Shown: positions 4,013 through 39,642 of the stretch, piece after piece
How the letters are laid out: the number at the start of each line of letters is the position of its first letter
Numbering within the stretch: the stretch's first letter is position 1
Origin: Botryllus schlosseri
Lineage: Eukaryota
Assembly: GCA_051294905.1 (NCBI GenBank)
Contig: CM119372.1
Coordinates: forward strand, 6,512,001-6,576,000
Reading direction: 5' to 3'
Length of the DNA stretch: 64,000 nucleotides
Notes under the pieces: model-generated
Told to the model about the DNA's origin: nothing
Databases searched by the model: none
The model's input: only the letters and a program-made list of their open reading frames with translations
Made by a program: the position numbers and the translations under genes

Positions 4013-7000
4013 TCACGTTTTCTTCGTTTTGCCGCATCTGCAAACTTTTCGAGCGCAGAATTGCACGATCTCTACCGCAGTAATGATACTCATCCCAAGC
4101 CACAATCCCAACTGGCCACCTGAATTCAAAGTCAATATATCATTGCGATAGGCCTGATAGGCCAATAATCATACCAGGGATATCTAGATATCCCTGATTC
4201 ATACATGCAGAAGAGGTGTCTCAATCCCAATCGTTTGGTACGATTTATCACGCACTAATACAAGTTAGTCTGGGTTTTTCGTCATAATAGTCTCTTCGGA
4301 GACTTGGAACACAGAATTTCCAGAAATATCACTAATACCGGTATAAAATGGGACACTCTTTCATTACGGAAGCTGGATTTGATATCATGTTTACTCACCT
4401 ATATCACTGAGCAAAGACGATTCGTCGATTTTTTTCGACTGCGTTAGCTTACTATAACTCATCGCTTTGAAATATAAATCGAATTCCACAACGTTTTGAG
4501 ACGCTTCAGTTTCTGGAATCTCCCAAATTTTCTAGAAGTATATATTCAAAGTTGATGTATACCTACATGGTTACACCGTACTTTATTTGGAGTTTTGCTA
4601 TACTTACGGCTAACGCACCAGTTGTTGGCGGGTTGGGAAACGTCGCGTACGAGATTGTACTATGGAAGTCGGAGTGGGAGCATGGAACTGTGCAATTGCA
4701 TATATCGGCAGAGTGCTAAATCAGAAATGGCCAGCTAAATAAACTGTTATATACCAGAACATTTGTGTAATAGAAATATATCTGCAAGTTTTGAACTTTA
4801 ACTAGTGAATATTCATCGCAAACAACTGGTATTAAGGAATTTATATTGTATAGCTATCTAATTGCAATGCAAAATAATAAAAAAGAAACGATTAGATAGC
4901 TCCACCACAATGGGAATTACAGCGATGCTTCCAAGAGCAAAGCTGTTGTTGACATCTCTACATTAATTCATCAACTGTGCAACATACACAATTCATGCCC
5001 TAGGCCAGTGGTTCTCAACCTTTTTGGCTTCGCGGACCCCTTTTGACCGTCACGGACCCTCGCGGACCCCCTCAAGTTTTAGTTCAATTTTAGCCCTATT
5101 ATGGTGTAACCTTAATTTGTCTGGTGCAAATATTATCTGTAGGCTTGTGATAAACAACAAAATAGTGATTTTTCTTGAAGATAACATCATACTATTTCTG
5201 TAGAAATTGGTGGAATTTTATTATTTTAAAGCTAATTTTTCTGCTGTACTTCTTGAAGTACGTGGTCGTGTCTTGAAAATCCGCGTATTCGTTTTGATAT
5301 AAACGAGGAGTGCCGAAAACCATTTCCGTAAAGATAGATGGAGGCTAATGCAATATTTACGTATAACGCTTCCGACGATACTTTTGGTGTGATCGCAACA
5401 TTTATGGCACCAAAATGAAGAAACAAATATTTTATGAACATATGACGTCCCGCATCCAGTGCAGGGACGGGCAACATACGGACCGCGGGCCGGATTCGGC
5501 CCGCGACGGCATTTTGATCGGCCCGCAGAGAGTTTCTACAGTCGAAGTGAAATCCTAATCTAAAAGTATAGACAAATTTTATGCTCCAGAGAATGGATCC
5601 AAGTTTTCCAACCAGAGACTGTCATGAAACGACTTGTTCTGTTCGGGTTAAATATATATTTATGAGCAAACAGTTTCGACCATGAACAATTGAACATTAA
5701 CAAGAAGAGGCTGCGTACCAAGAAAACTAGGGATATGAATTTCAGAGTTGGGGCGTAATGCTTTGATAGCAACGCAACACTCCTTGTTCATCAAAAAATC
5801 AGCCTTGTCGATAGGGCATCCGCAATAAGAATGCTTCAAATGTGATAGCCGAGCTTTAAGAGCAGGTATATCATTGTCCGATTTATGACGAGTGTCAGCC
5901 GAGAATATTCGGGTTCATTTCAATATGAATATGCTATTCCATTTTATATCAAAGTTCTGTACCTCCAAGAAGCTTTTCCCTGCATTGGAACAAATTATGG
6001 AAATACTTCGGATTTTTTTTAATTTCAAACGACTGCTCACTAACTTGATGAGACTGACAACTTCAAATCGAGAAGGTTTCGTAGACATTACGAAGTCACC
6101 CTGATTGACGTTACTATCTCCGTATTTTTTTTTTCCACAAACCTCAACAAAACGTCTCTAAAGAGCAATATGTTTGTATCAGCAGGTTATTCGAAAATTG
6201 GCAATGAAAATGAGTTTCCACACTACCATCGTCCATGTCAGACGATTATTATTATGATATGAGTCACGGGGTTTTAGCAGTTGAGGTGCGAAACTCCCTC
6301 AAGCTTTCTCAAATGAAAAAATACAATAAAAATTTGGTTATCAACCATTTTAAAAATTTAGAGGTCTCGCGGACCCCCTGAAATTGCTTCGCGGACCCCC
6401 GGTTGAGAACCGCTGCCTTAGGCCCCAGTGTTGGGATGACTCGAGTCATGACTTGACTCGAGTCACCTTTTTCGTTTGACTTGACTTGACTCGAGTCACT
6501 TTGCTAAAGTGACTTGACTTGACTCGGCGTATCAGAAATGTGGATTGACTCGTGACTCGGAGCAAAATTCACGAGTCAATTTCAAGTCATAATATTTTCG
6601 GTGTCGATGAAAATCAATGAATCTAGCATATGTTCGCGAAACGCTGGTGTAACCCGCGAGAGCGACCAATCATTCAATTATGGTGCGTTTTACTGAGCCG
6701 TCATTGTTTACTCACAAATAAATTGACCACAAACGAAGTGTTCGAAGCTTACAGCGTTGTCGTAAACAAGTAATTTAATAGCAAAATGTCTATTTCTATT
6801 CTCTGTTCTTACCTTAACCAAACATCTTGTTTTATTGAAAATGAATTGGAAGATAGTTTATATACTCCTCACCCATTGGCGCCGACTCGAATTGTATCAT
6901 ATCAGTATGTATAAATTGGTAATGTATTGCATCTTATCAATTCGTCTCTCTATTCTCTATTCTCTATTTTGGCTGGTAACTATAAACTGAGGCTATGCAA

Positions 7001-10000
7001 TTACTTACGTAGTTAAATAGTTCTACGTATATGTAAGCGATACAGCACCTTCTTGCGTGTATATTTATATTCGTTCATCGGATCAGAAATAATGACCACT
7101 TAATCTGTATTTCAGACAGCTAGCAAAATGCAATGACGTAATCATGCCTCATAATTCTAATAGGCAACTTGACTTGAATTGTGACTTGACTCGTGACTTG
7201 ACTTGACTTGACTCGACTTGACTCGAGTCACCTTCAAAAATCGAGTGACTTGACTTGACTCGAGTCACCTTTGGAAATCGATTGACGTGACTTGACTCGA
7301 GTCAAAATGTGCAATGACTCGAAATGACTCGTGACTCGAAGGTAGTGACTTGATCCCAACACTGCTAGGCCTATCCGCACGTCATTTTGCCAAAATATAA
7401 TGGGATACATTTGGGAAGGCTTGTTACAATGTGAGGGGAAAACAATGACTGTTCATAAGCAAGGTACTTTTGTATTACTTTTCCGGTGACTATACCTTTG
7501 ACCCGCTCCAGCCGAAAATATTAGGGTTTATTTCAATATGAATGTGCTATTCAAAGATATTATAAAGAAACTTACATTTACAGGTCTGTCATGTTTGGTG
7601 TGGATTCACCCACAACCTACCCCATCTCCTCACATTAAAATAAGGAATAAACTTATACTTTTAATCGTCCAATACCACAAAACACATACTCAGTATATCA
7701 TATTGTTAAATATAAGTAATTGCCTCACAGTTCGCTGCACATGAATTAGGTATTCATAAGCGCAGTCTTGCATTTCCGACATAGTACATTGTCGGCCATA
7801 TTCCTCCGCCCAGTATTGCGTGAAAATGTAACATCCGCAACGGTCAATCACAGCATTGGTGTAGCATTCTGGAAATGAATGCATTTTCAATGTATAATGT
7901 ACAATGTGTGATGTGTGAACCATTTCGTATATATTGAAATATGTTGAAAATACGCAGACCTTGGAGGCAATTGTTCAATGTGTAAACGGGAAAGAACTTT
8001 AAGTTTTCGTTGGATGGGTCACATATTCCCCACGGCTTGTACATCAAATTGAAGTCCTGACGGGTTACTTCGATAGACGCTTTTCTTCCGACTGGTATGG
8101 ACATGCCCAAGCTTCCTACATCGGGTGTTTCGCCACGCTGATGGACCTGATAAAATGTGCTGCCTTGTCTTATCATTGTGATATCCGTCTGACAAGCCTT
8201 TGGGAAGCATTTTGCGACGCTCCATTAAATCTCATTCAGATGCGAATTTATATACCCACAATTAGCGAGGATGCCAATATATACAATCACAATAATGTAA
8301 TAAGTGGATGCTGTCACTTAACAGCGGATGATATGATAAACTCACGCAAGATGTAATAATAATGTTGACTACATCTTTTCACCGGCTTTAATCAAACAGA
8401 ATAGCTGTAGTTTGAAGCATGCTATACAAATTTGTTCGTAATAGAAGTATATCCGTAAAATATTCATGCCTGTATTCTCAATCCCGCATCCCGTAAACCA
8501 AAAACGGGCTCCTCCGTTATGCCGTCTAGCTGCACATTCAAGGTCACAGAAAGACCGTTTCCCGCTCCGGGTATGTTCTGAATTTTACTGACGTTATCAG
8601 CGTTGAAGGTATGACAGACGCCCATCCACGACAGGACTTCAGAAAAATCTTCGGATGAGCAATCCTCGTATTTGAACCTGCAAGTATGAATCTTGTTGAT
8701 GCGGTCTGGTTGTACAAAGGAGTCGTTTCTGAATACGATTCTCGACAATATATTTAAAAAGTACTACTATTGCAACGTTCCTATTTAATTGAAGCAGAGT
8801 GTAGGTCTGTACGTGTAATAATAAATGTGTTGCTAGCTGGTTCTAATTGAGAATGCTATCATCATATGTTTACAGCGATTGCCGTAGTTTGAAACTTATT
8901 GTTAGATCGAGATTCATGCCCAGATCAGTCATCCACGAATAGCTAGGGATATTTTACACGGACTATAGGCCGAATTGTCTCTTTCTGAGAAGAGGTGGTA
9001 CGCAGCTAAAGGAAATTCTGTCAGTATAAAATTAAATATTATATTCAAATTGAAATCAAACCGAGTGCCAAAATATTAACCCGTGTGTCAACCAAAAATA
9101 TTCGGGTTGATTTTATAGGGATATATTATTCAGATATTGAAGCTCTCTAACCCCAGCAATCTCTTTAAATTTATCAGGCAATACCAACAAAGGATGTGAA
9201 ACACTGCCTTACTATGATTGCAGCTTGACATAATAATTGTTAAATATTTTATTTCACGAGATTGATTTGATATACTCGATATGGTTTGATATTTCTTCGG
9301 GTTCAATGGTTTGATATACTTCCTACGGTTCAATGTCTGTAATCAGAAGGGCGATATTTTTGACATTGAAAAAAAAGTCAAAATTTTGTCAAAATTGTAG
9401 CGTTAGGTCGAAAAATTGTTTACAAGGTCAAAATTGTTTGCAACCTGCAGTTCGTTTGTATCGTAGATGATTGTACTGTCGGTGAACTTATAATTTGGAA
9501 TCTTGTAGGCATTCCGTTGTAGATGGCCCATTGTCTGCTCATCGTGAATCATAAACAGTCAAATGAAACAAATATAGGTCTACATGGTGTTATGCTCCAC
9601 ATTTTTCGTCAATTCTTGGCCCGAGAATGCAGGAAAGCATCTTTCGTTGCACTACAACAAATTTTAATTATTTCCACCATAATGCGTGATGTAACTACTG
9701 GAATTCTTCATAGGTGCGGATTTCGTTAAAATAAAGTTTTTTTCATGTGAAAATCTGTCCGTTTTTAAGAAACAAAGTTTTTTCAGGCCAAAGTACTTCG
9801 TAAAGACATACAGTTCCAACCAGAATAGAAGATAACTAGTAAAATTATAACAATATGTGCTAAAACGCCTATAATTTACATACATGAGGGCAAAGTTTGC
9901 TAAAATTAAGTTTTATAACGTAATGAAATGTCAAAATTTTATTTTTTAGTCAAAATCTTCTTCTGGGGGTAAAATATCGCTCTACTAATAAGTAAAATGT

Positions 10001-13000
10001 CGTAACCGCTCCCCAGAACCGGTCGCGGAAATGATAAGCACGAAACTTTTTGCAATAGATAATAATTGAGTGGTATAATCATATAGAAATGAAACCCGAA
10101 TATTTTCGGCTGACACTCGAACATTTTATATTAACAATCGTGACGTCATATTTTGTGATAGGATTGTTGATATACAATGTTCTTTCCAATTCTCTACTAG
10201 TTCCTGACGAATACCCCTGACGAGTGTCAGCCGAAAATATTCGGGTTTCATTTCAATATGAATATACTATTCAATTGTATACTGAAGTTCTGTACCTCCA
10301 GAAGAAGCTCTTCAAATAGATGATAATAAAAATAATGAGAAATGACATGCATGCTTACACGCAACGTGGCATCACTTTTCCGGTGAGGTAAAATCCGTGC
10401 TTCCTCAGCAATCTTCTGATATTCAATTCACTGTCCAGTAGATCGGCCACCTCACTCAAATTAGGTCTGTGATTTCTGATTCCGTTTCTCCCCACGTTTG
10501 TCGGAGTTATGAGCTGATTGAACACGTGAATCGCGTCGATCAATGGCGATGCTTGCGATTCCATATAAAATCTTAAAACAGGAAAAAGTCGATTGGATAT
10601 GAAGCTACATCAAGTGTTTATATTAAAGTATCTATTCGAGTTTTTTTTCTGGTGCATTAAGGAAGAAGAAAGCGTGATGGTTTGCATTCATGATACAGTG
10701 GGTAAGGCTGAGCAAAATCGAGTACCTATTGCATTTCACTTTGTGACAATGCTGTGGTTTGATTATGACGTCACAGACATGTCATTTCACTCATGTGCGT
10801 AGCTTTGTACGACTTGTTTCGTATACTGCGATACGCCCAATCGAGGTTTACAGCCTTCCGCAGTAGATATCATTATCGAAACTAAAATTGCGATTAAGAC
10901 ATTAACTCTTAATGGCAAAGGTACTCGAATAACTCATATTTTACTATAGTCGTCTCGAAGCATTAGAATTGATACTCTATTCAGATTCGAGTAGGCCTAC
11001 TCAAATTATTGTGTCCAGCCCTAACAGATGCATCCACGTTAGCCAACCATTGAAACATGCGTTGCTCGCAAATTTCATTTGATACTTTACAAGATTGCAA
11101 CTAGTATGTGCGCCGTGCGGTTAGACATAGGAATTACCTATTGAATGTGCATATCGTTACTGCTGGAAATGGCATCTCTACCACAAACTCCTGAATTATT
11201 GATGTATTCGTTTCGTAATCAAAGTACGCGACAATGCGATCAACGACTTGATATGTCAACATGGCACCCATACCTGAAAGGAAAATACCTTGCAACCGTG
11301 CGCTAAAACAGTCTGCGCCAATAGCCTGCCTGTTTCGATTCCTAATCACAGGCGCGTATAGCAATACATAAGCATATTCTAACCCAGAGGTCTCAAACAC
11401 GCGGCCCACGAGAACATTCTGTGCGGCCCGCGATGGCATTAGGGAATTTCAAGTATTCGGACATTAGATTCAAGTGCCATATATCTTTTTTAGATTTAAG
11501 AAATTAAAGTTCACTATAAAACTACTACAAAACCTTAAATCTCCACAGACTTCACTATCACATCACATTTAAAAGCTACCAGGCGGACGAAGATCAGGTC
11601 ACATTTCTGGTTCATGATGATAAAACACGACCCGTTGATGATTCGTGCCTGAAAATTTTGATTTGGTTAGGTGGGACTTTTCGTAAAATTACTCGATTAC
11701 GAATTGACTGAGTGAATAAATAAAAATGACCCTAGTTGAGTCGGGTCAAACGTTAAAATCAGAGAAGGGCTTGTGCCCCGGAACGGTGAATTGGTGTTCG
11801 TACAGGCGCAACAATCTATGAAACGGTCATAGGGAATAGCAATATATCGAAAGGTCGTAGCTTGCGCTGCGTAGGATATATATCTATCTAATCAGATCAG
11901 TATGGCAACAACTGGCATTCTGTGACCCCCGCGACGTGGTTATACATCCTGGGTGTTGTTTGTTCTCTTTATCCATGTTATTATCGGTGGCGAGTAAGGT
12001 AGTGGTACCCTACACAGCTGTAACACCAATGGATTGGCGATTGGATATTTCTACTCCAGTGATCCTTAACCAGAGTTCCGCAGACCCCTTCGAGATACGA
12101 AACACCACATCAGAGGGTACGAGATGTATTGTTGAATAAGTCCTCTATGCCGTGGAATATTTTCTTGGCTAATTTATTGATCTGGAAAGTATTTTTCGCG
12201 CTATGCGTGATTTTATAAGAATGGGCTTTCTGATTTAAATATAGGTACCATCAGAAATTATGTTGAAAACGGACAGAGATGTGAGAAATCTTCTTGAAAG
12301 GACAATGGGTACGATCGCTAAAAAGGTTAGGAAGCAATGCTATTACCATGGTGCAATAATGATTATATTTAGGTTGTTATTGATAAGTTCCAATAATATT
12401 CGAAGGTATATCTGACGCTGATTAAATTTGACTTTGGCAGTGACAGTAACAATAGCCTACTTATCACGACTATATCAAAAAAACGGAATAGGCTCCGCTG
12501 CTCAAATGCTCTGACATCAGGCCAATCTTCAGTAAATTTTAAAATATTCTACATAAAATTGTGACACGTCAAAGGTCCACTAGCTGCAATATTATAACCC
12601 GACAGCTTTTACGATGTCATGATGCGTCCTCCCGTATGATGTCTATATTAGCCTACTCATTTTTTAAATTATGCACGACACAAAAACAATTTTATTCAAA
12701 TATTTCAAAATGTGATTTTTCCGTGCCAGCGTGAACAGTTCAATAGTAAATTACATTTCATGATGTTTGTGGAATGCCTGCCTGCAAGGTCCCGTCAAAT
12801 AAGGCCTACTTGTAAATTATACGCCCGCAGCGTCATCAAGACTATAAGAAATGGGCACGGGAACACATTTGAGTTTGAGGCCTCTGTTCTAACCAACTAA
12901 AAGAATGATCCAGAAGGCTTTGATCGGTTTTGACTTGCTGTTGTAGTAAAACGAAACCCCGTGCATTGTAGTTGTTGAAGCAAAGTTTTCCAATGGATCT

Positions 13001-13212
13001 TCATGCTTGCCATCTCTGGCCATATCGATTTCCGCAACATTCTTCTTGGAGATATTGGAACGCATGTTCGGCGATCCTAACTCTGTCTCATAGTTGGATT
13101 GAAATGGTTTGCCTGACATACTATCCATCAACTGATAATCATCCAGATCTGTCGTTCTTTCTCTATGATCGTTCGAATCGGGATATACTTTCCCACTATA
13201 AACGGGCAGCAT
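4013..13212 (-). CDS. DEG/ENaC/ASIC-superfamily ion channel subunit, paralogue A (9 exons, about 516 aa)
   Basis: Exons (minus strand): 13212-12894, 11273-11138, 10571-10359, 8677-8470, 8146-7960, 7868-7729, 4715-4608, 4531-4399, 4119-4013. They total 1551 nt and every phase is compatible. Motifs: FASTTTMHG (HG motif), TM1 FWIILLVG, MPFPAVTICTFNR, GVCHTFN, GAGNGLSVTL, KPWGIC, Cys-rich thumb, SSLLSDIGGQLGLWLGMSIITAVE (TM2). All introns are GT-AG except intron 4 (GC-AG). Confidence 0.93.
4175..4196. repeat. 22-bp perfect palindrome with near-identical 8-bp flanks (micro hAT element or footprint)
   Basis: CAGGGATATCTAGATATCCCTG flanked by aatcatac / attcatac. Confidence 0.7.
5006..6415. mobile_element. 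hAT MITE (CAGTGGTTCTCAACC TIR) with a nested Buster-type fragment from 5462
   Basis: TIRs cagtggttctcaacc / ggttgagaaccgctg, TSD ccctaggc/ccttaggc, gcggacccc subterminal repeats. The nested cagggacgggcaac end at 5462 is followed by decayed LVLFG...EQTVSTMN..INKKRLRT. Confidence 0.85.
6426..7364 (+). mobile_element. hAT MITE family A (CAGTGTTGGGAT TIR, GACTTGACTCGAGTC arrays)
   Basis: TIRs cagtgttgggat / atcccaacactg, degenerate TSD ttaggccc/ctaggcct. Homologous to 23349-24356 and 39913-40884. Confidence 0.9.
9342..9990 (+). mobile_element. Internally deleted hAT-like element, same family as 56150-58290
   Basis: Ends agggcgat / atcgctcta. Shares the blocks gtgaatcataaacagtcaaatgaaacaaat and ccataatgcgtgatgtaactactggaattcttcatagg with the 56-58 kb copy. 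Confidence 0.7.
10703..11023. mobile_element. MITE (TAGGGCTGGGC-like TIR), related to 31327-31806
   Basis: Ends taaggctgagcaaaatcgagtacc / tgtccagcccta. The left end is the reverse complement of ggtactcgattttgcccagccca at about 31783-31805. Confidence 0.6.
11385..12886 (+). mobile_element. hAT MITE family D (CAGAGGTCTCAAAC TIR) filling intron 1 of paralogue A
   Basis: TIRs cagaggtctcaaac / gtttgaggcctctg, perfect TSD ttctaacc. Homologous to 49241-50415. Confidence 0.9.
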
Positions 13213-13915: not shown

Positions 13916-14339
13916 TAGGCTTACCATATTTTGGAAATCTAAAAAGAGGACACTTTTTCAGAAATTTGAGACTTGCAAAACCGGAGAGGAATTCTCAAAA
14001 TTCGGTGAAATTTTTCCCACTTTGTGATCGGTTGACTAAAAAAAAAAGGTCAACTTTCCCGCTCAGAGCCCAAAATACCGTTTCTTCCTCCACATTACCG
14101 GGTGGTTGACACTGAAAAAAAAGGTCATCTTTTCGCTCAGAGCTCAAAATACCGTTTGAGCGTCACTGCTGTGCTAAATTACGGCATATCCCTCGTATTT
14201 TGCTCTAAATATGACCTCAATTTTCAAAAAAGAGGACAAAATCTCAAAAAAGAGGACAAAAGGGCGTCCTCCAAGGACACTTTCAAAAAAGTCAAAAAAG
14301 AGGACAAATCCTCTCAAAAGAGGACGTATGGTAACCCTA
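13916..14339. mobile_element. hAT MITE (TAGGGTTACCATA TIR, AAAGAGGAC repeats)
   Basis: TIRs taggcttaccata / tatggtaacccta, perfect TSD attaatac. Confidence 0.85.
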
Positions 14340-14637
14340 ATTAATACGAGCATGATCATTGCATATGACAATAACAATGAGACTATATCTATCGCGAACG
14401 GCGAACTCCGTATCTATCGCCAACCAAACCAGCCAGAGACGCTTATTTCTCTTTCTAATTAACGAAGCCCGCGGGAATATCATTCAATACATTTTATTGA
14501 GCAAAATGAAATGAAATCAGTTATCCCGGTACGTTAAAGCAAATATCAAGCATATATTACGTTAACCGAAGCAACTTTGAAAAACTGTGGAAATACATGT
14601 CCAATTTTCCATGCACTGTGCAATATACACGTCTGCA

Positions 14638-17600
14638 TCATTTTTCGACTCTTTTTCTCCGACATTGCGACAACTTTCTTGCACAAAATTGTATCACCTC
14701 CACCACAGTAATGACGCTCATACCGAGCCACAATCCCAGCTGCCCGCCTACATTATGCAAAGAAAAAAACTTTCATCATATTATCTTGGGATGTAATAGA
14801 TACTACTACTACCATATGTATGTTTTTGACGCCTATATACAAGTTCTAGTTAGCGTCGAAGCATGATTTACTGGACACGTACAACGCACCGAGCTCATGA
14901 AACGTCATGAATGACTTGAGTTCGAATTCTGGTGCATGTCATTTGAATCATTTTTGTTTTGTTATTTCCGATCGGTTCCAATCTATATTTCTTTCGTCAA
15001 ACAATAATAACTATATTGAAATATTCGTTGGTGCAATTCAAATCCATATGCCCGTTTCTTGTACCATTCATTTTAACATTCACAGTTGAAATAGCGTTGA
15101 AATATTGATATATGCTGAGAGTGGATGAAACGCAACTTCCAGTCAGAATTTTCCGTCGGAAAGCGCCCGGCCGCACGTCACTAATGGAAATAAGCGGCTC
15201 GGCCATATCAGTTGAATTCCCCTGTTTTCTGTACAATAAAATTCCGAAAACTTCATGTTGCGTAGCCGAGCAAAGCATGAGCACATACCGATTACAGCCT
15301 ATGAGCATTAATAAGTGCTTACGGTTTCCATGGTCGGCAGATGCGATTGATGGCTGGACATAATGGTAAGATCAAATATTTTAAAGTAATACAACTGCCC
15401 TTCTGTTTGCGAGGGTAAATTGGGACTATTTCGTTCTATTCTTTTTGTTATCTGACAAAGATGAAAGGCAATGACTTTTATTCTGGCGCCTGCAGATAGT
15501 CTTCAACGGTGACCAGGTCTTTATCCGGCAATTTATGACGTAACACTCACTGGGTATGGAAGTCTTGCTAAAGCGGTTTATTATGTGTCGCCTTATGTAT
15601 AAATGCACACATTATTTGTTTTGAATAAATAATTAATAAGGTAATATCAACCGCGATGTACACTAAAGTAACCATCGGATCTAATTGAGTCATATGTGTA
15701 AGGATCAGAGGTCGACCGATATTGATTTTTGCCGGCCGATACCGATACCAATTATCGACACACTAACAAGGCCGATACCGATATCATAGGCCGATATTAA
15801 TACGGAAGGAGCAGAGAACCATTTCGCCAAAAAATATTAGGCAAGGTTTCACTTGAACATGCCACGGAAAGCTGAACAACTGATCAGAAAACTGAAATTG
15901 AAAAAAAGTACTTCCTAATTGTGCACGTTCATTGAAATTTGGGATAACCCAAAAAGCAAAACGTGATACAGCATTGCAGATCAGTCCAGTAGAGGTAATA
16001 CAGGAAACATAGTTTCTCTGCATGATCACACAGTGCAACTCGTCCTACAAGGGTAAATATATCACGTATCGCCCTCTGTGTCGTCGATTTCTTGAATTTC
16101 CAATATTTTAGAATTTTTTTTAGATGCAAAATAGCAGCCGCGATATCGGCCTTCACAAATTTAGATTATGAGCTGGCGCTATAAATGTATTGCGACGTAA
16201 CAAATGACGATTTCCAAAACTTTTTGTCTCTAATCGTATTCATGCATTTCCCATTTACTCAACCGTGTATAGTCGCCATGAATATATCTTGGCATCAAGA
16301 AAGCGATATAAATGCAATGGTGAATAATCATGTTGACTATTCCATATGATCATTATCGATTGTTATTGCTTCATTTTGCTGTAGTCGTATTCGTAATCGC
16401 CTATATACATTAGGGATGTTCAAAAATGACTTTTTGTTTTCAAATTGTACTGGCTACTTGATAAAATTGTTAGGTTAGGGAATTAAAGGCTGCATACCAA
16501 ATTTGGTTCAAATTCCAATTTACGGTGGCTAATTCTCGAACTGGCCACCGTAAATACTATTTTATTCAAATCAAAAATTTTCTATTGCAATAACTCCGCT
16601 TCCACCGTTTGGAATTGAGCCAAATTTGCTGAGCATCGTTTCTATAGGCAACCTAACAATTTCCAAGGGTGAGCATAAAATTTTGTATTTATTTATTTTT
16701 ATTTTTATGTATAATAAATAAAAAACTTTCTTCTCTTGTAACAATGCGGCTGCTGGTTGGAATTGAAACAAATTTGGTGTGAAACCTGTAATTAGGTAAC
16801 GTAACCATTTTATCAAGTCGCCAATACAATTTGAAAACAAAATTCATTTTTGAACGCCCCTAATATGCATTAACGCAGCTCGCAGCATGCCTGGCCAGTG
16901 GTCGGTATGCACTCAGCCAGCCTGAACCTAGTTGGTCAGTTATACAGTGACAGTATACGATTTTGAGTATCCATAAATAGTTTGACCAAAGACTTATATA
17001 AGTGTTTTTAACTATCAAAATCATATTATAAAGTGCCCGAAACACAGAAAACGCTTTCCCACCTATGTCACTGATCAAACTGGAGCCATCAATTTTCTTC
17101 GATTGCGTATACTTAGTGTAGCTCATTCTTGGGAAGTAGACGTCGAAAGCAATGTAGTTCTGCGAAGACTCTTCCGACGACAAGTTGTATGCCACCTATT
17201 AAATTGTCAGGAGGGCATGCTCAAAAGAATGCGATTGGGAAGACACACCTTTATTAAGTATTCTATGCACACATTGCACAGGTCGCACATCACTAGAGCC
17301 GATAGGTCATCACATCATTGAAAGCGATACACCTTGTATGTTGCATATTTCTAAAGACAACGCAGAGAGTCTAATATTAAGGTGTTTTCAATAGAAATAC
17401 ATCTCCGATTGAGATCGAGAAGAAATATAATATTACGTGTTCAATAATTGACGTCAACGGTTCGTCTAATGAATCTCACAATCTTGCATCATGTGCTGGT
17501 GAGTATAATGAGATTGATCCCGCATTCAAACAAAATATGTTCGACAATTTCATGTAACATATAACAACAGAGCTTCGCGTCCACTGTGCAGTGAAAATCC

Positions 17601-28200: not shown

Positions 28201-28711
28201 TATCTTCGCCTTCCTCTCCCTTGCATAGTGTGACACGGAGGTGGTCAAAGTAGTCAAGAAAGCTACTCAAGTAGAAGTCGAATTAGCGACTAAAATCTAC
28301 TAAAGTACGAGTAGAAGTGGTCCTTTTAAAAGCATCCTAAAGCTAATTCAATTAGAAGTAGCTACGCTAAAATCGACTCAAGTAAGTATGTATAGTTGTG
28401 AAAAGCAGTAGATACGCTCGCATGGGCTGTCAAAAGTAGGAAACTGAACGCATCGGGCCATATTGACTGTGGTGAAACGTGTCATATTGGCGACAATACG
28501 GTAGAAAGGAAACCGTTATACCTCAATGATACTGAATATAACTTTTGCGGAAACATAATACATCTTTTGCATTCTCTACGAGTTGCCGACGATTACCCCT
28601 GACGCGTGTCAGCCGAAAATATTCGGCTTCATTTCAATGTGAATATATACCATTCAATTGTATATTGAAGTTCTGTAGCTCCAACAATCTCTTGAAAGTG
28701 TACTTTTCACT

Positions 28712-28757
<46 letters not shown>

Positions 28758-31700
28758 GGAAGAATAGTAGAAGTATTTCGTTGCTGACCACCTCTGTGTG
28801 ACAACATCGTAATGAGACATTTGCGATCAATGGATCTTCAACACCCCCAGCGATATTCTATAATTTTTATCATCCTGCCTACTGTGGCATTGAATGGCAG
28901 TCCTAAAAATCACCGGCGACCTCCTGCATTTTACCGTTAGCAGTTGCACACATTGTGTTGTCTTACTTCACTTACCGCCCTTTGTATTCTAATATAGAAC
29001 TCTCCAGCACAATCCTGAGTCTCTTCAAGGGTGCACTCGCGACCAGACCCCGCGGCCCATTGTTGTGAGTATAGGTAACAGCCGCAATGCTGAAGTATAG
29101 CATCTGTATAACACTCTGCACAAGTGAATTTCGTGAGGTAACGAGGATGAAATATTGCTAATATATTTGGTATACCATGAAAGCAATTGCGCAGAGTGTA
29201 GTGCTCGAAGTATTTCAACTTTTCTCGTGTCAGGTCACAACGTCCCCACGGCCGCTCCATCAGTTCGCAATCCATGCGATCCAGCTCGATCGATGCCTTC
29301 ATACCGGCTGGAATGGATATACCGAAGTCTTCAACATCTGGCGTGTCCCCGCGTTCGTGGACCTAAATTACATGGTCATGTTTGTGACGTATTGTGAAAG
29401 ATAGAAGTGATGACCCGGGTAACATCTTTCTAGAGCAGAGGTTTCCGGTCTTCCACAATGGGGGTTCCGCGAGTCAATCTGAGGGGCTTCCTGGATGCAA
29501 ATACCCACGCACATATCTTGCATATGATTTGGGCTGGTACGACCGTCTTGACCATGACAGATTGGTGGAGAATATAGTTCCCATTTTGGCCCAAACAGTA
29601 GTCGAATTGTAATTGTTGGGGTCTCGTGCAGTGCCGCATATGCAGGGGAGGTTTGGGTCGAAATCTAAACCTCGTCCTTTTAAAATGCCAATTATATGTC
29701 CAATACGTGTGGCGTAAGCTCATCTGTAATATCACGCTGCTACATTTCGACCGAAAAATATAGACGATGATCTTTTTTCAAGGTGACGCCTCGCATTTCG
29801 GAATCCTTGCAGAAGTCTGATTTGCAATAAATATTCATCATGTTTTTGTTTTGTGTGGTAATGTTTATGGTAATGTAATGTAATGGTGAACTGAGTCGGA
29901 GTCGAAGTCGGTACGTTTAAAGACCCAGGAGTCGGAGTCGGTAGTTTAGAGACTCACACTGTAAAAAATAAAGGTGGGCTAAAATGGAGGTGGAAACCAC
30001 AATTACCACTTTCATGAGAGGTGGGTACATGCCATACACCTCTGAAGAAGGTATAATACCATAATCCCTTTCTTTACGAAAGGTGGGTACATGCCATACA
30101 CCACCGAAGAAGGTATATTATTCTTCCCACTTCCAACAATACATCTTCCACCTGCCTAAACCCTCCTATAGAATGAAGTACTAGCTTTTGTTGCCTCCTC
30201 ACACCCAAACTCCATGGAGCTGTAACGGCGGACGCTCAAATTTATAAGCCGTGGAATGCATATTTTCAGTTTTCACCTTCTTATTAAAATCGTTTTCAAT
30301 ACCAAGCTATTATTGTTGTTGTGACAGTATATATCTTCATCATCATTTGTTTATTAGCAATGAGCTATGAATTCAGTACACCACAAAAATGAGATACAAT
30401 GAAAAGACAGCCGTATAAAGTTTATTCCAAAGTTCTGATATTGTTATGCAGGGTATCGACATAATATTATACTAAATTATGCAACGCATCAGTTATTTGC
30501 GCGGCGATTCCGCGAAGTCAGCTGAGTTTCCACGGGAACCACATTCTCAAGGGAAACCCCGTTCAACCATCGAGTTTCATAAACACCGATGAGCTTATGG
30601 TTCGACTTACATCTTACTATCCTATTCAGTCAATTTCTAGTCTGTACTCGATAATGATAAATATAATATTTATTTGGTGTACTAATTAGTAAGTCGAACA
30701 CAAAAAGCGAAGATATTACTATCTCTATGCTGAGTGATCAGCCATGTCGGTTACGCTTTAATTAATCAGCGGTCTAACCTCGAAGCAGACAGATCGAAGA
30801 GACCGCGTCGGCGGCGCATGTCTTCTCTTGTAGTTCATTGTGAAGCTAATTCTTATGAGTTGTGCCTATTCTTACTACACATGCAATAGTTATACGTTTT
30901 TTAATATGAACCGTTTCTTCCTGTTAAGGAATGCGGTATGAATGCATTCTGTTCTCGCTAGCATATACCCGTATATATAGTTGCTCAACTGTTCATGTCG
31001 TTGTCGGCTGTCTGACGACCGGCCGCCATATTGGAGAATGGACATTACATTACGCCACGTGCAGAAATGGAAGGTGAGACGATAATGGACTAATAAATGG
31101 ATTTTGCATGCTTCAAACTTGCCTTTTCAAACTTACATGCCTAAGTCAGAGTCAGCTTCAAATGCTCAGTTCAGTTGAATTAATTGTTTGAAAATTTTAG
31201 AAGTACCGGTAACTGCAATTTATGGTCATTTTCTAATATGAAACCATGCTATATGGTATATCCAGTAGGGAATTGGTGTATACGCAGCACACTTAGGCGA
31301 CTGACTGGCTGACTATGACTAGTAGCTGGGGCTGGGCCCAATGATTCGAGTAATCGAACCTGAATAGAGGATTAATTCTTATGATTCGAGTCGAGTAGGA
31401 AAATACAATATTTTCAATTTATACCCGAAAATTATAGTTTTGATACTTATTTTCACAGTTGAAGACTTGAAATCTTGATTGGCGTTATCGTAGCCTACGA
31501 AACCAATAGTACAAAAGCTACCAAGGTTACTGGACGTAGCATATTTCCAAAATCATGATCACCCGACAGCATTTTCACCAAGTGGAATGAAATCGGTGAA
31601 GTCGAAAAATACCAAAGCATCTTTCATGTGATGGATAAAAGGCATTAAATTCTTGGTGGTGGCATAAACGGTACATATTTCAACTTTGACATCTAACATT

Positions 31701-34700
31701 CTGTTATGACGTCATAATAAGTGATACTTGATTACTTAACTCGACTCGAAGCATATTACGTGATTCAGAATTGAATCACTCTGGTACTCGATTTTGCCCA
31801 GCCCAACTAAGCATGAAAAGTTCGACTGGCTCACAAAAGCAAAGTAAATCCTATAAATTCAAATCAGCTTATTTTTGCTGCTTCACCTGTTGAAAAAATG
31901 ATTGAGGTTCGGTTTCACAAATTTAATCTCCCAATGAAATTTTTATTCTGTCTCACTGCATATTCCAAATTTCGGCTGCTTTGCAGAAAACTGTTTCGTC
32001 TTCTGTCCCTGAAGACGAGATGAGCAAGATTTCCCATCAACGCGGAATTGGTTGAAAATAGGATTGATAGGATGAAGCGCAGAAGCTGACATCGATGTCC
32101 CGAAGACAAAATGATGGATTGTGATTGGTATGTTTTTCACTTTCTGCTATTATATCTATTACCTGTGTTGTAATAAAGCTGTTGATTTTGACATAAGCAG
32201 TGATCTCTTCAAATAGTGGTATTGAGTATCTAAATTCCGCCTATTAATTGCCTCTCGTGATATAGGCCTATAGAGCGTTCTTCAATCATGTTGCAATTGC
32301 ACGGCATCAATTTTCGCACTGTTTTTGATCTATACTAATACGTCATTACGAAGCGACACGTTGACGCACTCCACTTTGTTGTCTTGTAATGAGTTAATGT
32401 TGACCTGTATGTATTCAGTGATCAACTTGGACTTATAATATATTTTGTTTTACAGCATCTCAATATCTAGACCGGATTGTTTCCATACCTACAATTTTTC
32501 ATAAAGGATATGGCAACTTCTTCCAGGTTGAACAGGTACGGATTTTTATCAAAAACATAAGTACCTGTTTGCTTGAAATTTGGGATGGGAAAAACTATTC
32601 CACTACTGCCACAAAATCGAGCTTCAACTGTGGTTGAGTGGTGGAGATTCGGAGACGATTTGAATACTGAAAATTACGTTTTATAATATCAATTATTGAA
32701 TTATAGTATCAATACATTTCTCTCAATGTGGTGTATGAGTATTGAACCTTTTTTAGTGAGGTGCAAACCTAAAACCGGTGTTTACAAGCCCATGCTCCCT
32801 TTTTCAGCTCGGTCGCATAACCCGCAGTTCTAACTCTGAGTCCGTGAAGCACATCTTTATGGTGTTTGCAGAGCTCTAAATTTTTAACCTGAATGATAAT
32901 ATAATTTGTGATTTTCTGAGCTTGAGTAAAGCATCACTTCGGATATTTCTAGGTTAGTACAGTGTAGAAGTAGTAATTTCAAATCCATGTCAAAGCTACT
33001 TCAAGTGGAAGTAGGAAATGAAGGTCTGCAAAGTACTCGAGTAGTTTGAAAAAGTAAATATCAGCAGTTATCCGAGGTTGCTACTTCAAACTCGCCAAGA
33101 TGTACCAAACTTGCGAAAATGGACTATTGACACGAGGTGGATGGCGGTTGCACTATTATTGAGCATGACTCGGACTAAAACTTGAGGGTGTCTGCACGGA
33201 TGCCTTGATGGTTAAAAAAGGGGTCCGCGCCGACAAACAAAATTGACAGCCACTCTACTGAAGGTTACCGTTCACATTAGCTGATGACTCAAAATGGTCA
33301 TCACTCCCACCTGGCCAAGTCCGCATATGCATTGGCCTATTTGCTATTTGATATCATATGTTGACTGAAAATACGATCCGCAGTGCCCTGCTGCCGGTAT
33401 ATTTCATAAGCTGATTACTGAAAGAACATCAATGTGTATGTTGTGTGTGTGTGTAGGGTATGTTTGACCTGATGTTTCTATCACATAATAATACATTTCT
33501 TTGAGACACCCACATCCGCGTGTCCTACAATTTACTTCGGTACAATGAAGAAAGAGTGGACCGTCTGGTTTGATGTTGAAATGGTGAAGAATATCGAGAG
33601 GCATTTGCAGTGATGCTAGAAATTCATTGGATCTTCGAAATGCAGTTTCTGACTGTCATTTCAGTTTTTCTGGCTCGTTTGCCAGGTGTAAAAGACATCA
33701 GTACTGCAGCTTATGCCAAACTGGATCACATTCGTGACTAATTTGCAAATAAAGTCATTGGAATGAAGGTGATTTAGTGCTTAAAGTGTGGTATATGCTG
33801 TACCTCGAGGATATCCGGGTAGGATGAAGTGGAATCCGGATAGGGCAAGGTGGAAAGTCGCCCACCTCATCATGAGGTGGGAAAATAACCACCATAGGTG
33901 AAATAAGGTGGATAATCTCCCTCCTCTTTTGAAGGTTTTTTTGGAACACCTTAAAAGGTGGGCCCAGTTTTTAGAGTGCAGGAGTCGAAGTCGGTATATT
34001 GAAAATGTGTGGAGCCGGAGTCGGTGGTAAAATTTACCGACTTCACACCCATGGTTATCCCTAACCTGAATCTGAACTCACGCTTAGAGCTAAAGCGGAA
34101 AGAATGTATGTATTCATAACTTAAGGTGGTAATCGAAAACTGAACAACATTTCCTTATTTGTGTGTTTAAAACTGCAACCATTTTTAGCTAATCATCTTT
34201 ATCTACCGAAATTTTTTACAGTATGTGTATATATTCAGTCGATAGCTTAGTTTAATTCATATCGTGGCATACATCCGCAGATATAGTACTGTTTCCGCGT
34301 ACCACCTTTAGGGTGTTATTACACACTCTCTTCGCTAGAGGTGTATCCGAATCGTAACTTGTTCGCTACCTGTATCCTCATTCCGTAATCAAGGATCCCA
34401 TGTATTGGCTCCTCCGTGAATTGATTCGTATGCGCGAATATTGTCACTGACAAGCCATTTCCAGACCCGGCGATGTCTTGGGTCAAAGCTTCATCCCCGA
34501 TGTTGAACGTGTGGCATAATCCAAGGCGAGATAAAACCGGCGTGAAGTCTGCGCCAGTGCAGTGCCTTCCATTGAAGCTGCCAAAAGTCAAGAGGTGAGA
34601 TACCCGGGTTTGAGCTGGAGCCACGTTTTACGAATGACTTGGCGCCACTCAATCACCAACAAAAGTGATCCTTTCAGGGTCATTCCGACGAAGTTTGATT

Positions 34701-37700
34701 GCAAATTGCTTATAAAGTCTGAAAAGTCTCAAATATTATCTCTCCTATATAACAATATAGCAACATCGTTTACATTGAATTATACTACCACACCACTACT
34801 GAATGCCACGTGAACAGATTTATTGAAAGCATATGCGTAATATACACCCGCGCTCAAAGGACTCAAATGTAAAATATTTTATGAGTTGAAATTGACTCGA
34901 AAACGAAAAATTTCAGGTGCTTTGAAATTACACAAGTCACGTTGAAAACCTGGATTACATCTTGACTCGAAATTGTTTTTGAAATGACATGGCTTGACTA
35001 TAGATTCAAACACCCAACTCGAGGTTAGTAAGTGCAATCACAAGATAACCTCAATTTGACTGTAGGGAATCACACTGTCAGGGGCAGTTGTTTACAAGGT
35101 TCGAGTCAATCATTTATCTCAATTGAAAATCGATGATATGGTTCAGAAGTGACATGTAGCCTACTACGCCGTCACGGAATCTAAGCGATATACGACCTTC
35201 TGGCATGAAGCCACAGCACCTGCAGATTTGCTATAAACCGATGCCTTGAAGTTCAAGACCATAACATGCGTCGCGGACAACTTTTTAAATATCGTAGAGG
35301 CCGCGTGAATTCAATATCGAGATAAAATAGGCCATACAGTTTAGCAACCATATTTTAAAACTTTACGTCAATACAGCGCTGTGCTCTCTAACATGGGCGA
35401 CGAGGATAGTTATTACAAAATAAATAATATTTTACTAAAATACAAATACAACAACAAAATATCTTGATCATCGCTGTCATTCAATTTTAAACTATGTGCT
35501 GCGCACGATACTCAACAACACTTTTCAGCGACCAAAGAATCGATATTGTGGTTAGCTAGACACGTTATTTTCAGGAAAACGACCTCCTCGTAAATCCTGA
35601 TCCTGTGGGAAAGCCCCAAGTCGTTTACGAAGTGTCTCGGTCAGGGGTGGCCAACCTTTCTGCCATTCACGGCCGCATTTCGAATACTCATGTAGCCTAC
35701 CGTCGCATTCCAGGACATATAGTCGTAATGAACTAACTGGACGCCATATACCATGTAAAGTGTATATGTACATTTCTAGTGAACTCCGGAAATATTTATC
35801 TACCCTATAGGCTTACTATACGCACCGAAATCGCGTCATGTTATTGGAAAAATTTTCTGATTCACCAATAAATTTCGTCATTAATAGCCTATTCGTAGCA
35901 TTACAAATTACAATAAAAAATTTATCCTTTCTCAGCCCATGTGATCAGATTCACCGGTAAAGTTGATGAAGGGGGCGTTTTCGAAAATTTAGGGCAAGTA
36001 ATAAATGATGATGTATCTTCGGGTGGGTCAATTTTATTAGTCACTTTGTTGCATGCTGTTATTTATTGATCTCTCATCAGGATTGTAGGTAAAGGGATGA
36101 GCACACGATTCCGAGTTAGTTTCTATATCATTTTGTATATTATCGCATCGTTTTCCTCTGCTCTTTGCATCGGTACTGTGGGGCTCTGATTGAAAAGGGC
36201 GCTATAACATATTAAAATCGGAAAATGAAGTCCTATTGAAACCCGCGCAGCGGGAAAAAAAATTCAAGGTTAGTTAGATTCTCTCAAGAAATCAGAAGTC
36301 AATTCGTAAATTCAAATTGTATGTCGACGGCCGCCAACACATACTAATTGTATACAATAATATATATATATTGAAGTTATGTACCTCCAAGAAGCTCTTC
36401 TAATTGAATTACGTGTCCATGGTCGCACGAATTGCCTTTTACGGCCGCAAGTTGGCCGCCCCTGGTCTCGGTCTTGGCAGTGTCTGGGCCATTGCACGCT
36501 AAGGCAATATGCCCAATTGCCCATTCATATCCTCTAATTCTTCCTCTATGGAATGCAATTACCATCGCCGAAGCCGTATCAGCTCGTGAGGAATAATGAT
36601 GTTGAGCACATCAGAATAGCTCGTTTTGAACAACAACAATATTTTGAAACTGAAATACACATCAGCATTTCAAAATGCTTTACTATTAAGCGTTCTCCCG
36701 AAATCTCAAATCGGGTCGCGGGCTGTAAAATATGACCTCGCGAGACGCGTGTTGGTGACCCATAGCTTAGAACTTATGTTCAGAAAGATGGTGATATTGA
36801 AAACATCGTAACTCACCTGCAATAAGGCATGGAATATTGATCGATCCTGAATCCCCGCGTCGTTAGCAATCGTGTCGTATTCGCATCTGGATCTAAGAGA
36901 GTGACTTTGGTGACGTTGAGCGTAATGTTCTGGTGTAAATTTTGCGCGATCGTCGCTGGTGATATCAGTTGATTAAAAGTATGTATCGACTCCAGGACTT
37001 GCGGATCATCAGTGTAACTGTAAATTCTGAAGCAAGTTCAGAAGAGTTATCGCCGTGACGGTAGTATAATTAAAAATCACCGACTCCCATTACCTGTTAA
37101 AACTGCACATTGTCACGGCAGGAAACGGCATCGACATTTCGTATTCCTCAGTTATGGATGTGACGGTGTCTCTGAGAAGATATTCCCCTACCCGCGCTCC
37201 GACGTGATATACCAATACGAACGCCATCCCTGCATATGAGAGAGCAATCATATATCAGAAACATATCATGTGACTCCGGTGCTGCCAGGGTTACGGCATG
37301 TTGAATTCGGCACTTGGTTAATCAGGCATTAGAAATGTGTAACTATCATTATAATGAAAGTACTGCATCAATATTATATTCAGCAATTAGAAGATCAACC
37401 TTTCACTGACTATGAGAGGTATTTGGTGACATAGGCTACGGTACTTGGTAATTCGGCATGTTGACTTTGGCAATTTGTATACATTTATTGAATAATTGAA
37501 TAATTAATATATTCGGGTTAGATTAGTATTTAGGTTATGGTTGGTTCAAGCATTGGGGTTGGTATTTGGTAGGGTTGCCATACGTCCAGAATTTCCCGGA
37601 CCTGTCCGGAATTTCACTGTTCAAACTAGCGTCCGGGAGGAATTTCTAAAATATGGCAAATGTCCGGAATTTTGAAGACTTGACGTATAGGCTCATAGTT

Positions 37701-39642
37701 TTTTTGTAAATCAGCATAACAACAATATTTTCTGGGAATGTTTATGCTGATGCATGATATTTTTCTTCGAGCTGCGCGCGATTTACTATCACATTTATTG
37801 ATTTTAATATGGAGACTACCATCCCTCGCAAAACTGCAATAGGATATAAATAAAAACAACCTTCGCCTTTACTGGAGCAAGCCTTATTGTAATCGCAATT
37901 ATATAGGAGAACGGTACATTCCTAGAGATCGTTAAGGCCGTTTAAATGCTTTATTCAAAGATAGTGGTTGCAAACGGGGGGGGGGGGGTCGTTTGCCTTT
38001 ATTCTGGGGTTTGCGAATATGTTGAACGTAATCAGCTTCCAAAATAGCCCGTGAGTAAGTCCGGGCAAAGGTACTGACTTCTTTTAGTAACCATAAAAGG
38101 TTAGAAACCACAAGACGTGGGGTGTTTATAAAGCTCCGTGGGGCACACCGGCATAAGACTGATAAACAGTCTTATCGGTAGGACATGAGCATGACTTAAC
38201 GATGTGCAATTACGCTCCCAGTATTTTCGAACTCATCATCGTCCACCAACTCTACCGCTAACTCTGATCAAGTGGGCGGAGAGTGGTATCTATAGTAATA
38301 TATGGAGCATCCAATATTATTGACAGAATTCTTTCAAATAATTTAACGACCAGATGTATATAGACACCAGATTCATATAGAAAGCAACCCCCCCCCCCCC
38401 CCCCCCAGAAGTTGCATCGATCACCCTATAGTGTGGACTCAAAATCATTGTTTATTTGGGAGGGAAGTGGGCTGAAAACGTGTTCTTTCGGTCCCGGTTA
38501 CACGACACACAACCACATACTCCTGAACCGGATCGTGACCACCTCTGGTCGATGAGCAAAGCTTTGCTATTATGACGTCATAACTCATTTTGAAATCCAC
38601 TAGTGGGCGCTAAAGAGTGGCCGGAATTTTGGTTGCAGAAATATGGTATTTGGGCTGGGACCGTAGCCAGAGGGAGGCAAAGTGCACTCTTGTCGTCAAA
38701 CGGTTTTATATGTCCCGTACCAACCCGTACTGCATTGCTGGAATAAATGCACCAGACGGTTTATCATTTTGCTTGCATACGGTATGGTTTGTTTATGTTG
38801 ATATTAGGAAGCTATGATCACACGCAAATCATGCGTATCGTCCGTACCAGTAAAAACAGTTATTGTCACACTTACACATTTCATCACAGGTAATTCTACT
38901 ATACTTTGTGGCGATTTGCTATACAGGGTTGTGATATGTTTTGTTAGGTAATATAGAGTAGGCCACGACTTCCCAACCTTCTTGTCTCTGCGGACCCACC
39001 CACGAGTGAAGACGATCCTATCAAAGCACTCATTTGAACCTGCATTCAAAATGAAATAGTTTCATCTGGAACGAATTTACGAGGCGATCGCTAGATCAAG
39101 GAGAACCCTCGGCTTGTTTTATGAAAAGCAATGAGAAGGCTCAATGGTGGATTACTTTACTAGTAGATTGAAGCAATACATTCCACTTCGCACTCGATTA
39201 GATAGGTTTATCACAATTTTAAAGATGCAGCATGAGAACAGATGGAGCGAAATATTTTACGTCGCCTTGAGTTTTAACTTGTGCCCACAAACAACTACTG
39301 CGAGCCTCAATTCGGAATACAGGCATTAACCGCACAGTTGTGAATATTCCTGCCCAAAATTCCCTGCATTAACCAGATTGACGAAAAACACTTATGCCAC
39401 AAACCGATTAGGAGAAAAATCCACAACCATTTTGTCGTCCGTGATTTGCTACTGTAGCAAAATATCACCCCGTGCATTGTTGTCGATGTCGCAAACTCTT
39501 CCGTTGCATCAGGCTCATTTTCGCCATCGAAATCTGCATTTTCATCGGAGTCAGATGGCCGTTGCTGCGACTGATCTTTCACGTTGGAATAAAAATCACA
39601 TTCCAATTTGGTTTCTGGTTCCTTCATGTTCTCACACACCAT
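25275..39642 (-). CDS. DEG/ENaC/ASIC-superfamily ion channel subunit, paralogue C (9 exons, about 497 aa)
   Basis: Exons: 39642-39405, 37229-37094, 37026-36817, 34577-34370, 29362-29176, 29115-28976, 28175-28068, 26146-26014, 25408-25275 (1494 nt, all GT-AG, in frame). Motifs: FATSTTMHG, MPFPAVTMCSFNR, GLCHTFN, GSGNGLSV, RPWGRC, SSLISDIGGQLGLWLGMSAITAVE. Confidence 0.93.
26469..27092. mobile_element. PIF/Harbinger-like (Tourist-type) MITE
   Basis: TIRs gggcgcagataataaagt / actttattatctccgccc flanked by tta / tga (TNA-type 3-bp target). Confidence 0.65.
27140..27697. mobile_element. hAT MITE (CAGGGTTGTAA TIR, GACTCG repeats)
   Basis: TIRs cagggttgtaa / ttacaaccctg, perfect TSD cttcgata. Confidence 0.9.
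28236..28796. mobile_element. hAT MITE (CAGAGGTGGTCA family) containing (TC)20
   Basis: cggaggtggtcaa / tgaccacctctg with tgtgaca on both flanks. Confidence 0.75.
28715..28754. repeat. (TC)20 microsatellite
   Basis: Read directly from the sequence. Confidence 0.95.
29957..33978. mobile_element. CACTA/EnSpm-like non-autonomous DNA transposon (about 4.0 kb) nested in a GGAGTCG-repeat MITE
   Basis: Termini CACTGTAAAAA / TTTTTAGAGTG with 2-bp TSD CA. AGGTGG-rich subterminal repeats at both ends, including a duplicated aggtgggtacatgccatacac..gaagaaggtata. It splits a ggagtcggagtcg MITE (about 29893-29956 and 33979-34052). Confidence 0.75.
31327..31806. mobile_element. MITE nested inside the EnSpm-like element
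   Basis: tggggctgggc / gcccagccca inverted ends. Related to 10703-11023. Confidence 0.65.
35642..36464. mobile_element. hAT MITE (CAGGGGTGGCCAAC TIR)
   Basis: TIRs caggggtggccaac / gttggccgcccctg, perfect TSD gtctcggt. Confidence 0.9.
37570..38650 (+). mobile_element. MITE (TAGGGTTGCCATA end, TCCGG repeats) containing G13 and C19 runs
   Basis: Left end tagggttgccatacgtcc. Homologous to the inverted copy at about 1050-2110. Poly-G at 37976-37988 and poly-C at 38388-38406. Confidence 0.65.

Follow-up and report, generated by a model that had tools for sequence, protein, structure and literature searches.

Three genes encoding BASIC-clade members of the DEG/ENaC channel superfamily lie in tandem on the minus strand of the window analyzed here, a 64-kb stretch of Botryllus schlosseri contig CM119372.1. 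These genes, termed A, B and C in their order of transcription along the minus strand (A, then B, then C), are intact and represent a tandem expansion, specific to their lineage, of the BASIC-clade channels of ascidians, and we are highly confident that they are a BASIC-clade family with the duplication history described below. The best overall reading, to which we assign a probability of approximately 0.62, is that they encode homotrimer-competent BASIC-like Na+ channels that are not proton-gated, that are subject to a low-affinity Ca2+ block and that have diverged ligand domains. BASIC is the least understood of the mammalian DEG/ENaC channels (PMC12283945, excerpts) and, according to excerpts of PMC9949801, the non-mammalian genes of its clade were uncharacterized as of 2023. 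No functional study of tunicate BASIC-like channels was found in the open-access papers searched. Tunicates are the sister group of the vertebrates, and three channels with nearly equal pores and differing outer domains are suited to studying how BASIC was gated at a time before bile acids and the E440 ring.

Gene structure

The exon sets were located by all-against-all comparison of the minus-strand frames, and the exon boundaries were then read off. Each gene has nine exons, an open frame and a single terminal stop codon; the start codons, chosen from sequence rather than RNA, are putative and correspond to the first in-frame ATG. Gene A (25275..39642, minus strand) is identified as encoding a BASIC-clade DEG/ENaC subunit of 497 amino acids (aa) by its gene model, Pfam ASC matches and the trees below; its exons are 39642-39405, 37229-37094, 37026-36817, 34577-34370, 29362-29176, 29115-28976, 28175-28068, 26146-26014 and 25408-25275. 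Gene B (14638..21834, minus strand; 463 aa), which is the sister of A with a support of 100/99, has exons 21834-21666, 21048-20913, 20849-20643, 19054-18856, 18740-18554, 18095-17953, 17808-17701, 17195-17063 and 14747-14638. Gene C (4013..13212, minus strand; 516 aa) has exons 13212-12894, 11273-11138, 10571-10359, 8677-8470, 8146-7960, 7868-7729, 4715-4608, 4531-4399 and 4119-4013, and its model is backed by contigs of run X2 that join exons 1-2-3 and 5-6. Pairwise identity is 257/461 (55.7%) for A/B, 228/483 (47.2%) for A/C and 228/461 (49.5%) for B/C. The paralogue count refers to the 64-kb window.

The eight introns fall at identical alignment columns in all three genes, with phases 1, 2, 2, 0, 1, 0, 0 and 1. 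An earlier note on this DNA had proposed three same-strand paralogues with eight matching intron positions and phases, and the nine-exon models bear this out: the span that it gave runs from the stop codon of C to the first ATG of A. Membership in the DEG/ENaC superfamily is indicated by the ASC domain (assessed with eight gene A pieces), the pre-TM1 His-Gly (HG) motif, the G-x-S filter and 13/13 conserved cysteines. In Pfam, PF00858 (ASC) matches 6/8 of the gene A pieces at E ≤ 1.4e-4 and a seventh at E 0.85, while exon 3 is unmatched. The lead obtained from the ESM Atlas, to ASC, was only a weak one. A word-based homologue search with the gene A exon 5-6 read-through returned no match; profile searches later gave matches.

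Family placement

The nearest full-length matches are ascidian "ASIC5-like / BASIC-like" proteins of Styela clava, Ciona and Clavelina together with the transcript P0001, the two best showing 35-44% identity. (An AlphaFold model of P0001 built from a fragmentary alignment was poor, with a mean confidence (pLDDT) of 57.6, and was not used.) When a profile of the trio and three close relatives was compared with solved structures, human BASIC scored 319 bits, ASIC1 272, ENaC-alpha 156, FaNaC 145 and PPK26 81. Vertebrate BASIC/ASIC5 (human 9MKY and 9MKZ; PMC12283945, excerpts) is thus the best solved-structure match, and FaNaC and PPK are not the closest kin.

Phylogenies were built with FastTree on 62 and 72 rows, with IQ-TREE under LG+G4 on 46/72 rows and under LG+C20 on 41 rows, and all agree; gamma was the sole ENaC in the set, and the rows included no named HyNaC, FaNaC, PPK or tunicate ASIC. 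In the LG+G4 and LG+C20 trees the three genes form a single clade (100/100) in which A and B are sisters (100/99). The trio lies within a clade that also contains three Styela genes and P0001 (100/97-99); this clade is nested inside a tunicate clade (100/99-100), which in turn lies inside a bilaterian clade with vertebrate BASIC (100/99). ASICs form a separate clade (98/93-94) that is sister in the trees. Approximately unbiased (AU) tests were run under LG+G4 on 40 rows (L001, described below, was omitted), with groups picked after viewing the trees. Grouping of the tunicate clade with ASIC was rejected (p 0.008), as was grouping with ENaC-gamma (one row; p 5e-6), while grouping with vertebrate BASIC was not (p 0.36). 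Trees and AU test place the trio outside the ASIC clade, and AU test and structure scores place it outside the ENaC clade.

These results uphold the earlier proposal of a locally expanded clade that is neither classical ASIC nor ENaC. In line with the note, the three proteins are not 1:1 orthologues of vertebrate genes; they nest strongly within the BASIC clade. The Trp in the second transmembrane segment (TM2), which had been taken as a mark of ENaC/FaNaC-type members, is misleading, as both structure scores and trees point to BASIC. ENaC alpha/beta/gamma and FaNaC have this Trp and the superfamily fold in common with the trio, but differ from it in scoring half the bits of BASIC, in the PY motif, in the R-x-K/R-R site, in having Asn rather than Asp at the gate and, for ENaC-gamma, in the rejected grouping.

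The nearest kin in all trees are the ascidian BASIC-like genes (S. clava XP_039267894, XP_039260984 and XP_039261001; Ciona XP_009861518; Clavelina XP_076810463). Like the trio, these have the W..GMS filter, a DES-like stretch ahead of the gate Asp and several paralogues per genome. In contrast, the trio arose by a separate expansion, none of the three Styela genes tested being a 1:1 partner of any of its members, and it has Leu/Val in place of Lys at position 193 of human ASIC1 (hASIC1). Four alternative trees, each joining C or A+B to Styela paralogues, were all rejected (p ≤ 3.3e-4). None of A, B and C has one particular Styela gene as its partner, and therefore no conserved alpha/beta/gamma-like triad is seen.

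Duplication history and selection

The most plausible history is that one BASIC-clade (ASIC5-like) gene of a stolidobranch ascidian was duplicated in tandem twice after the split from Styela clava, with C separating first and A and B afterwards. By the Nei-Gojobori method, nonsynonymous divergence (dN) is 0.34 for A/B, 0.42 for A/C and 0.41 for B/C, while synonymous divergence (dS) is 1.87 for A/B and saturated for A/C and B/C. The duplicates are thus old, evolve under purifying selection and bear no trace of recent conversion. Recent gene conversion was considered as a cause of the TM2 likeness and discarded, as agreement at the third positions of four-fold codons stays close to the chance level throughout the exons (exon 9: 3/11, 4/12 and 3/8).

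Divergence is unevenly distributed along the subunits. Using finger, thumb, knuckle and beta-1 boundaries that we take to be approximately right, identity within the trio is 38-58% for the finger and 54-59% for the thumb, similar to that between horse and elephant-shark BASIC (36% and 54%). The trio is more diverged in beta-1 (31-44% versus 62% for horse/elephant-shark) and in the knuckle (34-42% versus 53%). TM2 is 82-85% identical within the trio, compared with 68% for horse/elephant-shark and 68-71% in three BASIC-clade control pairs.

Pore, gate and sensor residues

From its sequence, each paralogue encodes a complete subunit. When aligned to hASIC1, all three retain the HG motif, D434, G437, G440, the G-x-S filter and a small residue at the Deg site, and none of the 13 cysteines common to human ASIC1 and horse BASIC has been lost from any of them. 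The TM2 stretch SDIG/GQLGLWLGMS reported in the earlier note is present in all three, interrupted by intron 8 at the slash. The G-M-S filter codons, which align with hASIC1 G444-A445-S446, are at 25377..25385 in gene A, 14716..14724 in gene B and 4088..4096 in gene C (all minus strand).

The key residues of ASIC-type proton sensing include H73, palm/wrist D78, K211 and E411/E416 in rat numbering (PMC9949801, excerpts). In the trio, H72/H73, D78, K211, D347, D351, E413 and E418 are all absent; the sequences YFDYET, YLQHDT and YLLRDT were found, and neither hASIC1 histidine is retained in any subunit. The trio differs from ASIC1-4 (Group A ASICs) in these residues as well as in the rejected ASIC grouping, while it has the same fold and keeps the acidic residues at hASIC1 E427 and D434. 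A C-terminal PPxY motif and extracellular furin sites are features of ENaC. PPxY is absent from A, B and C, as had been noted, and so is an extracellular R-x-K/R-R site; the ENaC-gamma control had both.

The missing His pair and PY motif had been offered as distinguishing features, but they are ordinary in BASIC: vertebrate BASICs also lack the His pair and have Thr at the H73 site, like the trio. Further likenesses to vertebrate BASIC are an extracellular region of 342-346 aa (versus 346 aa), the HG motif, the gate Asp, the Gly gate and G-x-S. The differences are Ser at E440, W..GMS rather than F..GAS, M-S rather than L-N in the beta11-12 linker, and the presence of three tandem copies.

The E440 difference bears on Ca2+ block. 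The BASIC E440 site is Ser in A, B and C, while D444 is kept; Glu occupies this site in 7/8 vertebrate BASIC rows (Val in lamprey) and in 0/12 tunicate-clade rows, so the second carboxyl ring of vertebrate BASIC is missing from the trio. One turn higher, a Glu six residues ahead of the gate Asp is present in 11/12 tunicate-clade references and in A and C, and is replaced by Gly in B (exon 8, 17063-17195). In human BASIC, Ca2+ is bound by E440 and D444 above the Gly gate, bile acids potentiate the channel and the E440G substitution cuts Ca2+ potency approximately 100-fold (PMC12283945, excerpts).

Features common to the clade

Several features that seemed special to the trio are clade-wide, and duplications are common in the BASIC-like family. 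The GMS filter had been considered distinctive, but W..GMS occurs in 21/195 proteins of at least 400 aa (isoforms counted; 20 unmatched by the pattern): 14 of the tunicate clade, six amphioxus ENaC-like and one mussel. Because the six amphioxus ENaC-like rows and the mussel row carry it, W..GMS arose more than once. Among the 12 tunicate-clade references, the TM2 Trp is present in 12/12 and GMS in 6/12. BASIC-like expansions are also found among the matches in Styela, Ciona, amphioxus and echinoderms, and the supplement of PMC9949801 contains five Ciona rows, three of which match tunicate-clade proteins by eye.

A metagenome scan returned 10 loci (L001-L010) among 256 pattern matches, representing four genes. 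These four BASIC-like genes lie on metagenome contigs with animal DNA and group with the Ciona/Clavelina subclade; two are close sisters. With the phases of the window imposed, L008 has AG/GT-bounded exons 2-8 of 136, 216, 211, 190, 140, 108 and 139 nt, compared with 136, 207-213, 199-208, 187, 140-143, 108 and 133 nt in the window, and its layout is the same for exons 2-9. Because L008 has an equal layout, the eight-intron arrangement is older than the trio; the shared introns are due to descent, as this gene of another ascidian-like genome has them too.

The pre-TM1 His-Gly is Gly-Gly in Ciona P0003/P0043 (XP_009861518 and XP_078489747) and Asn-Gly in L008 (4019-4117) and L010. Judged by this motif, a role as a subunit that is silent on its own would suit the Ciona Gly-Gly protein and L008/L010 better than the trio. 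In Styela, three paralogues of the trio's subclade are spread over two contigs. S. clava P0069 and P0224/P0225, whose accession numbers lie near each other, are located on one 22.5-Mb contig and may represent a separate tandem pair.

Assembly and gating

Our preferred reading is that each paralogue would form its own trimeric cation channel, like vertebrate BASIC, with mixing possible where subunits are co-expressed. Human BASIC alone yields currents in oocytes and its structure was solved with C3 symmetry (PMC12283945, excerpts). The trio channels would not be opened by protons in the ASIC manner. Instead, extracellular Ca2+ at the conserved Asp ring over the Gly gate would keep them mostly shut, a block predicted to be of low affinity because the E440 ring is Ser in all three and possibly aided by the acidic pair one turn higher, in which gene B has Gly for Glu. 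The Ca2+ concentration of seawater is approximately 10 mM, and a block of this kind would fit such a level. Opening might follow from membrane-active amphiphiles, from a fall in Ca2+ or from a putative ligand at the diverged finger, knuckle and beta-1 surfaces. The copies were probably retained for different sensitivities or cell types rather than for fixed alpha/beta/gamma roles. We offer the gating details tentatively, at somewhat less than even odds.

Several points weigh against this reading. Intact pores are no proof of homomer function, as most pore motifs are likewise present in the three ENaC subunits. Proton activation arose in NeNaC and TadNaC without the ASIC histidines (PMC9949801, excerpts), and by another such route it is possible for the trio. 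The three-subunit HyNaC2/4/6 channel of a neighbouring clade is a precedent for a heterotrimer (PMC9949801, excerpts). The trees do not resolve how the BASIC clade branches at its base: a direct orthology to vertebrate ASIC5 is missing from the best trees but was not rejected at p 0.36, and the trees lack the named HyNaC, FaNaC, PPK and tunicate ASIC rows mentioned above. Finally, run X1 has low depth over the repeat-free bins of all three genes, partly in intron-containing pieces.

The earlier note had suggested a different assembly, a heterotrimer. In its obligate form, A, B and C would have to combine 1:1:1, as do ENaC alpha/beta/gamma or HyNaC2/x/y, to give a lineage-specific channel. The retention of three tandem copies under purifying selection is consistent with this, as are the high TM2 identity, which would keep a mixed pore compatible, the outer-pore asymmetry (the tunicate Glu in A and C, Gly in B) and the X1 depth over all three genes. 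HyNaC of Hydra is peptide-gated and likewise a local expansion with heteromers (HyNaC2/4/6; PMC9949801, excerpts), although the likeness is one of description rather than of sequence. However, pore and gate motifs are complete in every subunit, the closest characterized relative works as a homotrimer (PMC12283945, excerpts) and Styela, the source of the nearest relatives compared, has no matching triad (4/4 pairings rejected). Nor is the number three special, given three Styela paralogues on two contigs and four genes in the other ascidian-like source, and X2 shows C spliced without A exons 8-9, a weak observation. The proposal draws solely on the clustering and the count of three, and none of the tests run either supported or excluded it. 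At hASIC1 Q276, gene A has Asp and gene B Arg; this possible charge pair was set aside as heteromer evidence, as horse BASIC also has Arg there. We consider an obligate heterotrimer unlikely, and the same holds for the version in which an ascidian peptide or a sterol-like ligand gates it. If such a channel did exist, the BASIC clade would have its first heteromeric, ligand-gated member, ENaC-like assembly from three subunits would have evolved independently in the vertebrate sister group, and the GG-donor intron of gene B described below could control subunit supply through splicing.

Modifier-type subunits such as ASIC2b and MEC-10 suggest a partial form of heteromerization, in which one or two members are silent alone and modify a conducting partner (e.g. 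A or B acting on C). In favour of this, the sister genes A and B lie farther from Styela in the tree than C does, the outer-pore Glu of tunicates is missing from B, and C is the copy with clear spliced RNA. Yet A and B keep all pore motifs, and with only 2/9 exons of A in the stretch examined for transcription, the three genes cannot be ranked by expression. This arrangement is improbable, if less so than the obligate heterotrimer. The homotrimer-competent reading remains the one that we prefer.

Transcription and splicing

Reads or contigs of 4/24 listed runs, none of them single-cell, were placed on positions 6301-26250, which take in the whole of gene B, the first six exons of C and the last two (8-9) of A. 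Runs X1 and X2 were assumed, as a guess, to be RNA; X5 and X9 are bulk runs of which 6% and 13% were read. X2 contigs join exons 1-2-3 (record 11) and exons 5-6 (record 10) of gene C as modelled, and depth arithmetic implies that C intron 4 is absent from record 10. Gene C is transcribed and spliced, and splicing was seen for C only. X2 has nothing in the bins of A exons 8-9 or in those of B exons 6-8, which is weak evidence as contigs cannot show absence, and X5 and X9 have nearly no depth on trio exons. Expression of the trio is low or restricted to rare cells.

The donor is GT in 22/24 introns of the trio, and both exceptions occur at the homologous intron 4: gene A has GT there, gene B has GG and gene C has GC. 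Intron 4 of gene C (8147..8469, minus strand; 323 nt) has the GC donor and is the intron implied to be removed in X2. Intron 4 of gene B (18741..18855, minus strand; 115 nt) is assigned its non-canonical GG donor by the gene model rather than by RNA. The Gln at which exon 4 of gene B ends also closes this exon in A, in C and in four further ascidian-like genes, and these four all use a GT donor.

The GG donor could indicate that gene B is decaying or mis-assembled, with a splice-disabling allele or a sequence error leaving only A and C functional. GG donors account for approximately 0.014% of human introns (PMC5714493, excerpts), retention of B intron 4 leads to a stop at the third intron codon, and no spliced B junction was visible in the runs examined, where repeats filled the junction tables. 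On the other hand, the remaining seven positions of the donor all fit the consensus, making it joint best of the 24 donors, and GG donors are common in one copepod, where they are preceded by an exon-final AG, as at gene B (PMC5714493, excerpts). An in-frame GT at 18861, 6 nt upstream of the GG donor, would if used delete merely two residues. In addition, the frame of B is open and its dN is far below dS. We regard decay or mis-assembly of gene B as very improbable.

A, B and C look like separate transcription units. An operon-like arrangement was considered and is unsupported, given intergenic gaps of 3440 nt (A-B) and 1425 nt (B-C) and candidate poly(A) signals after A and B. These signals, both on the minus strand and both consensus matches only, are AATAAA at 25113..25118, approximately 155 nt past the A stop, and at 14493..14498, approximately 140 nt past the B stop. 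Intron 5 of gene A (29175-29116, minus strand) is 60 nt in length, in frame and free of stop codons, and its donor is among the weakest (3/7); its retention would add 20 thumb residues.

Surrounding sequence

Rfam returned zero matches within the window. On the plus strand, 42113-53660 contains long frames, including ones of 229 and 452 codons, that may be parts of a gene with several exons running divergently from the trio; seven pieces of these frames gave no credible Pfam match, and the only Atlas lead was 0.76. Between A and B, positions 22724-23316 contain an inverted repeat of 292 nt (86%) in which the spacer is 9 nt long. The introns and gaps have many short dispersed repeats which, like the inverted repeat, are probably non-autonomous transposons.

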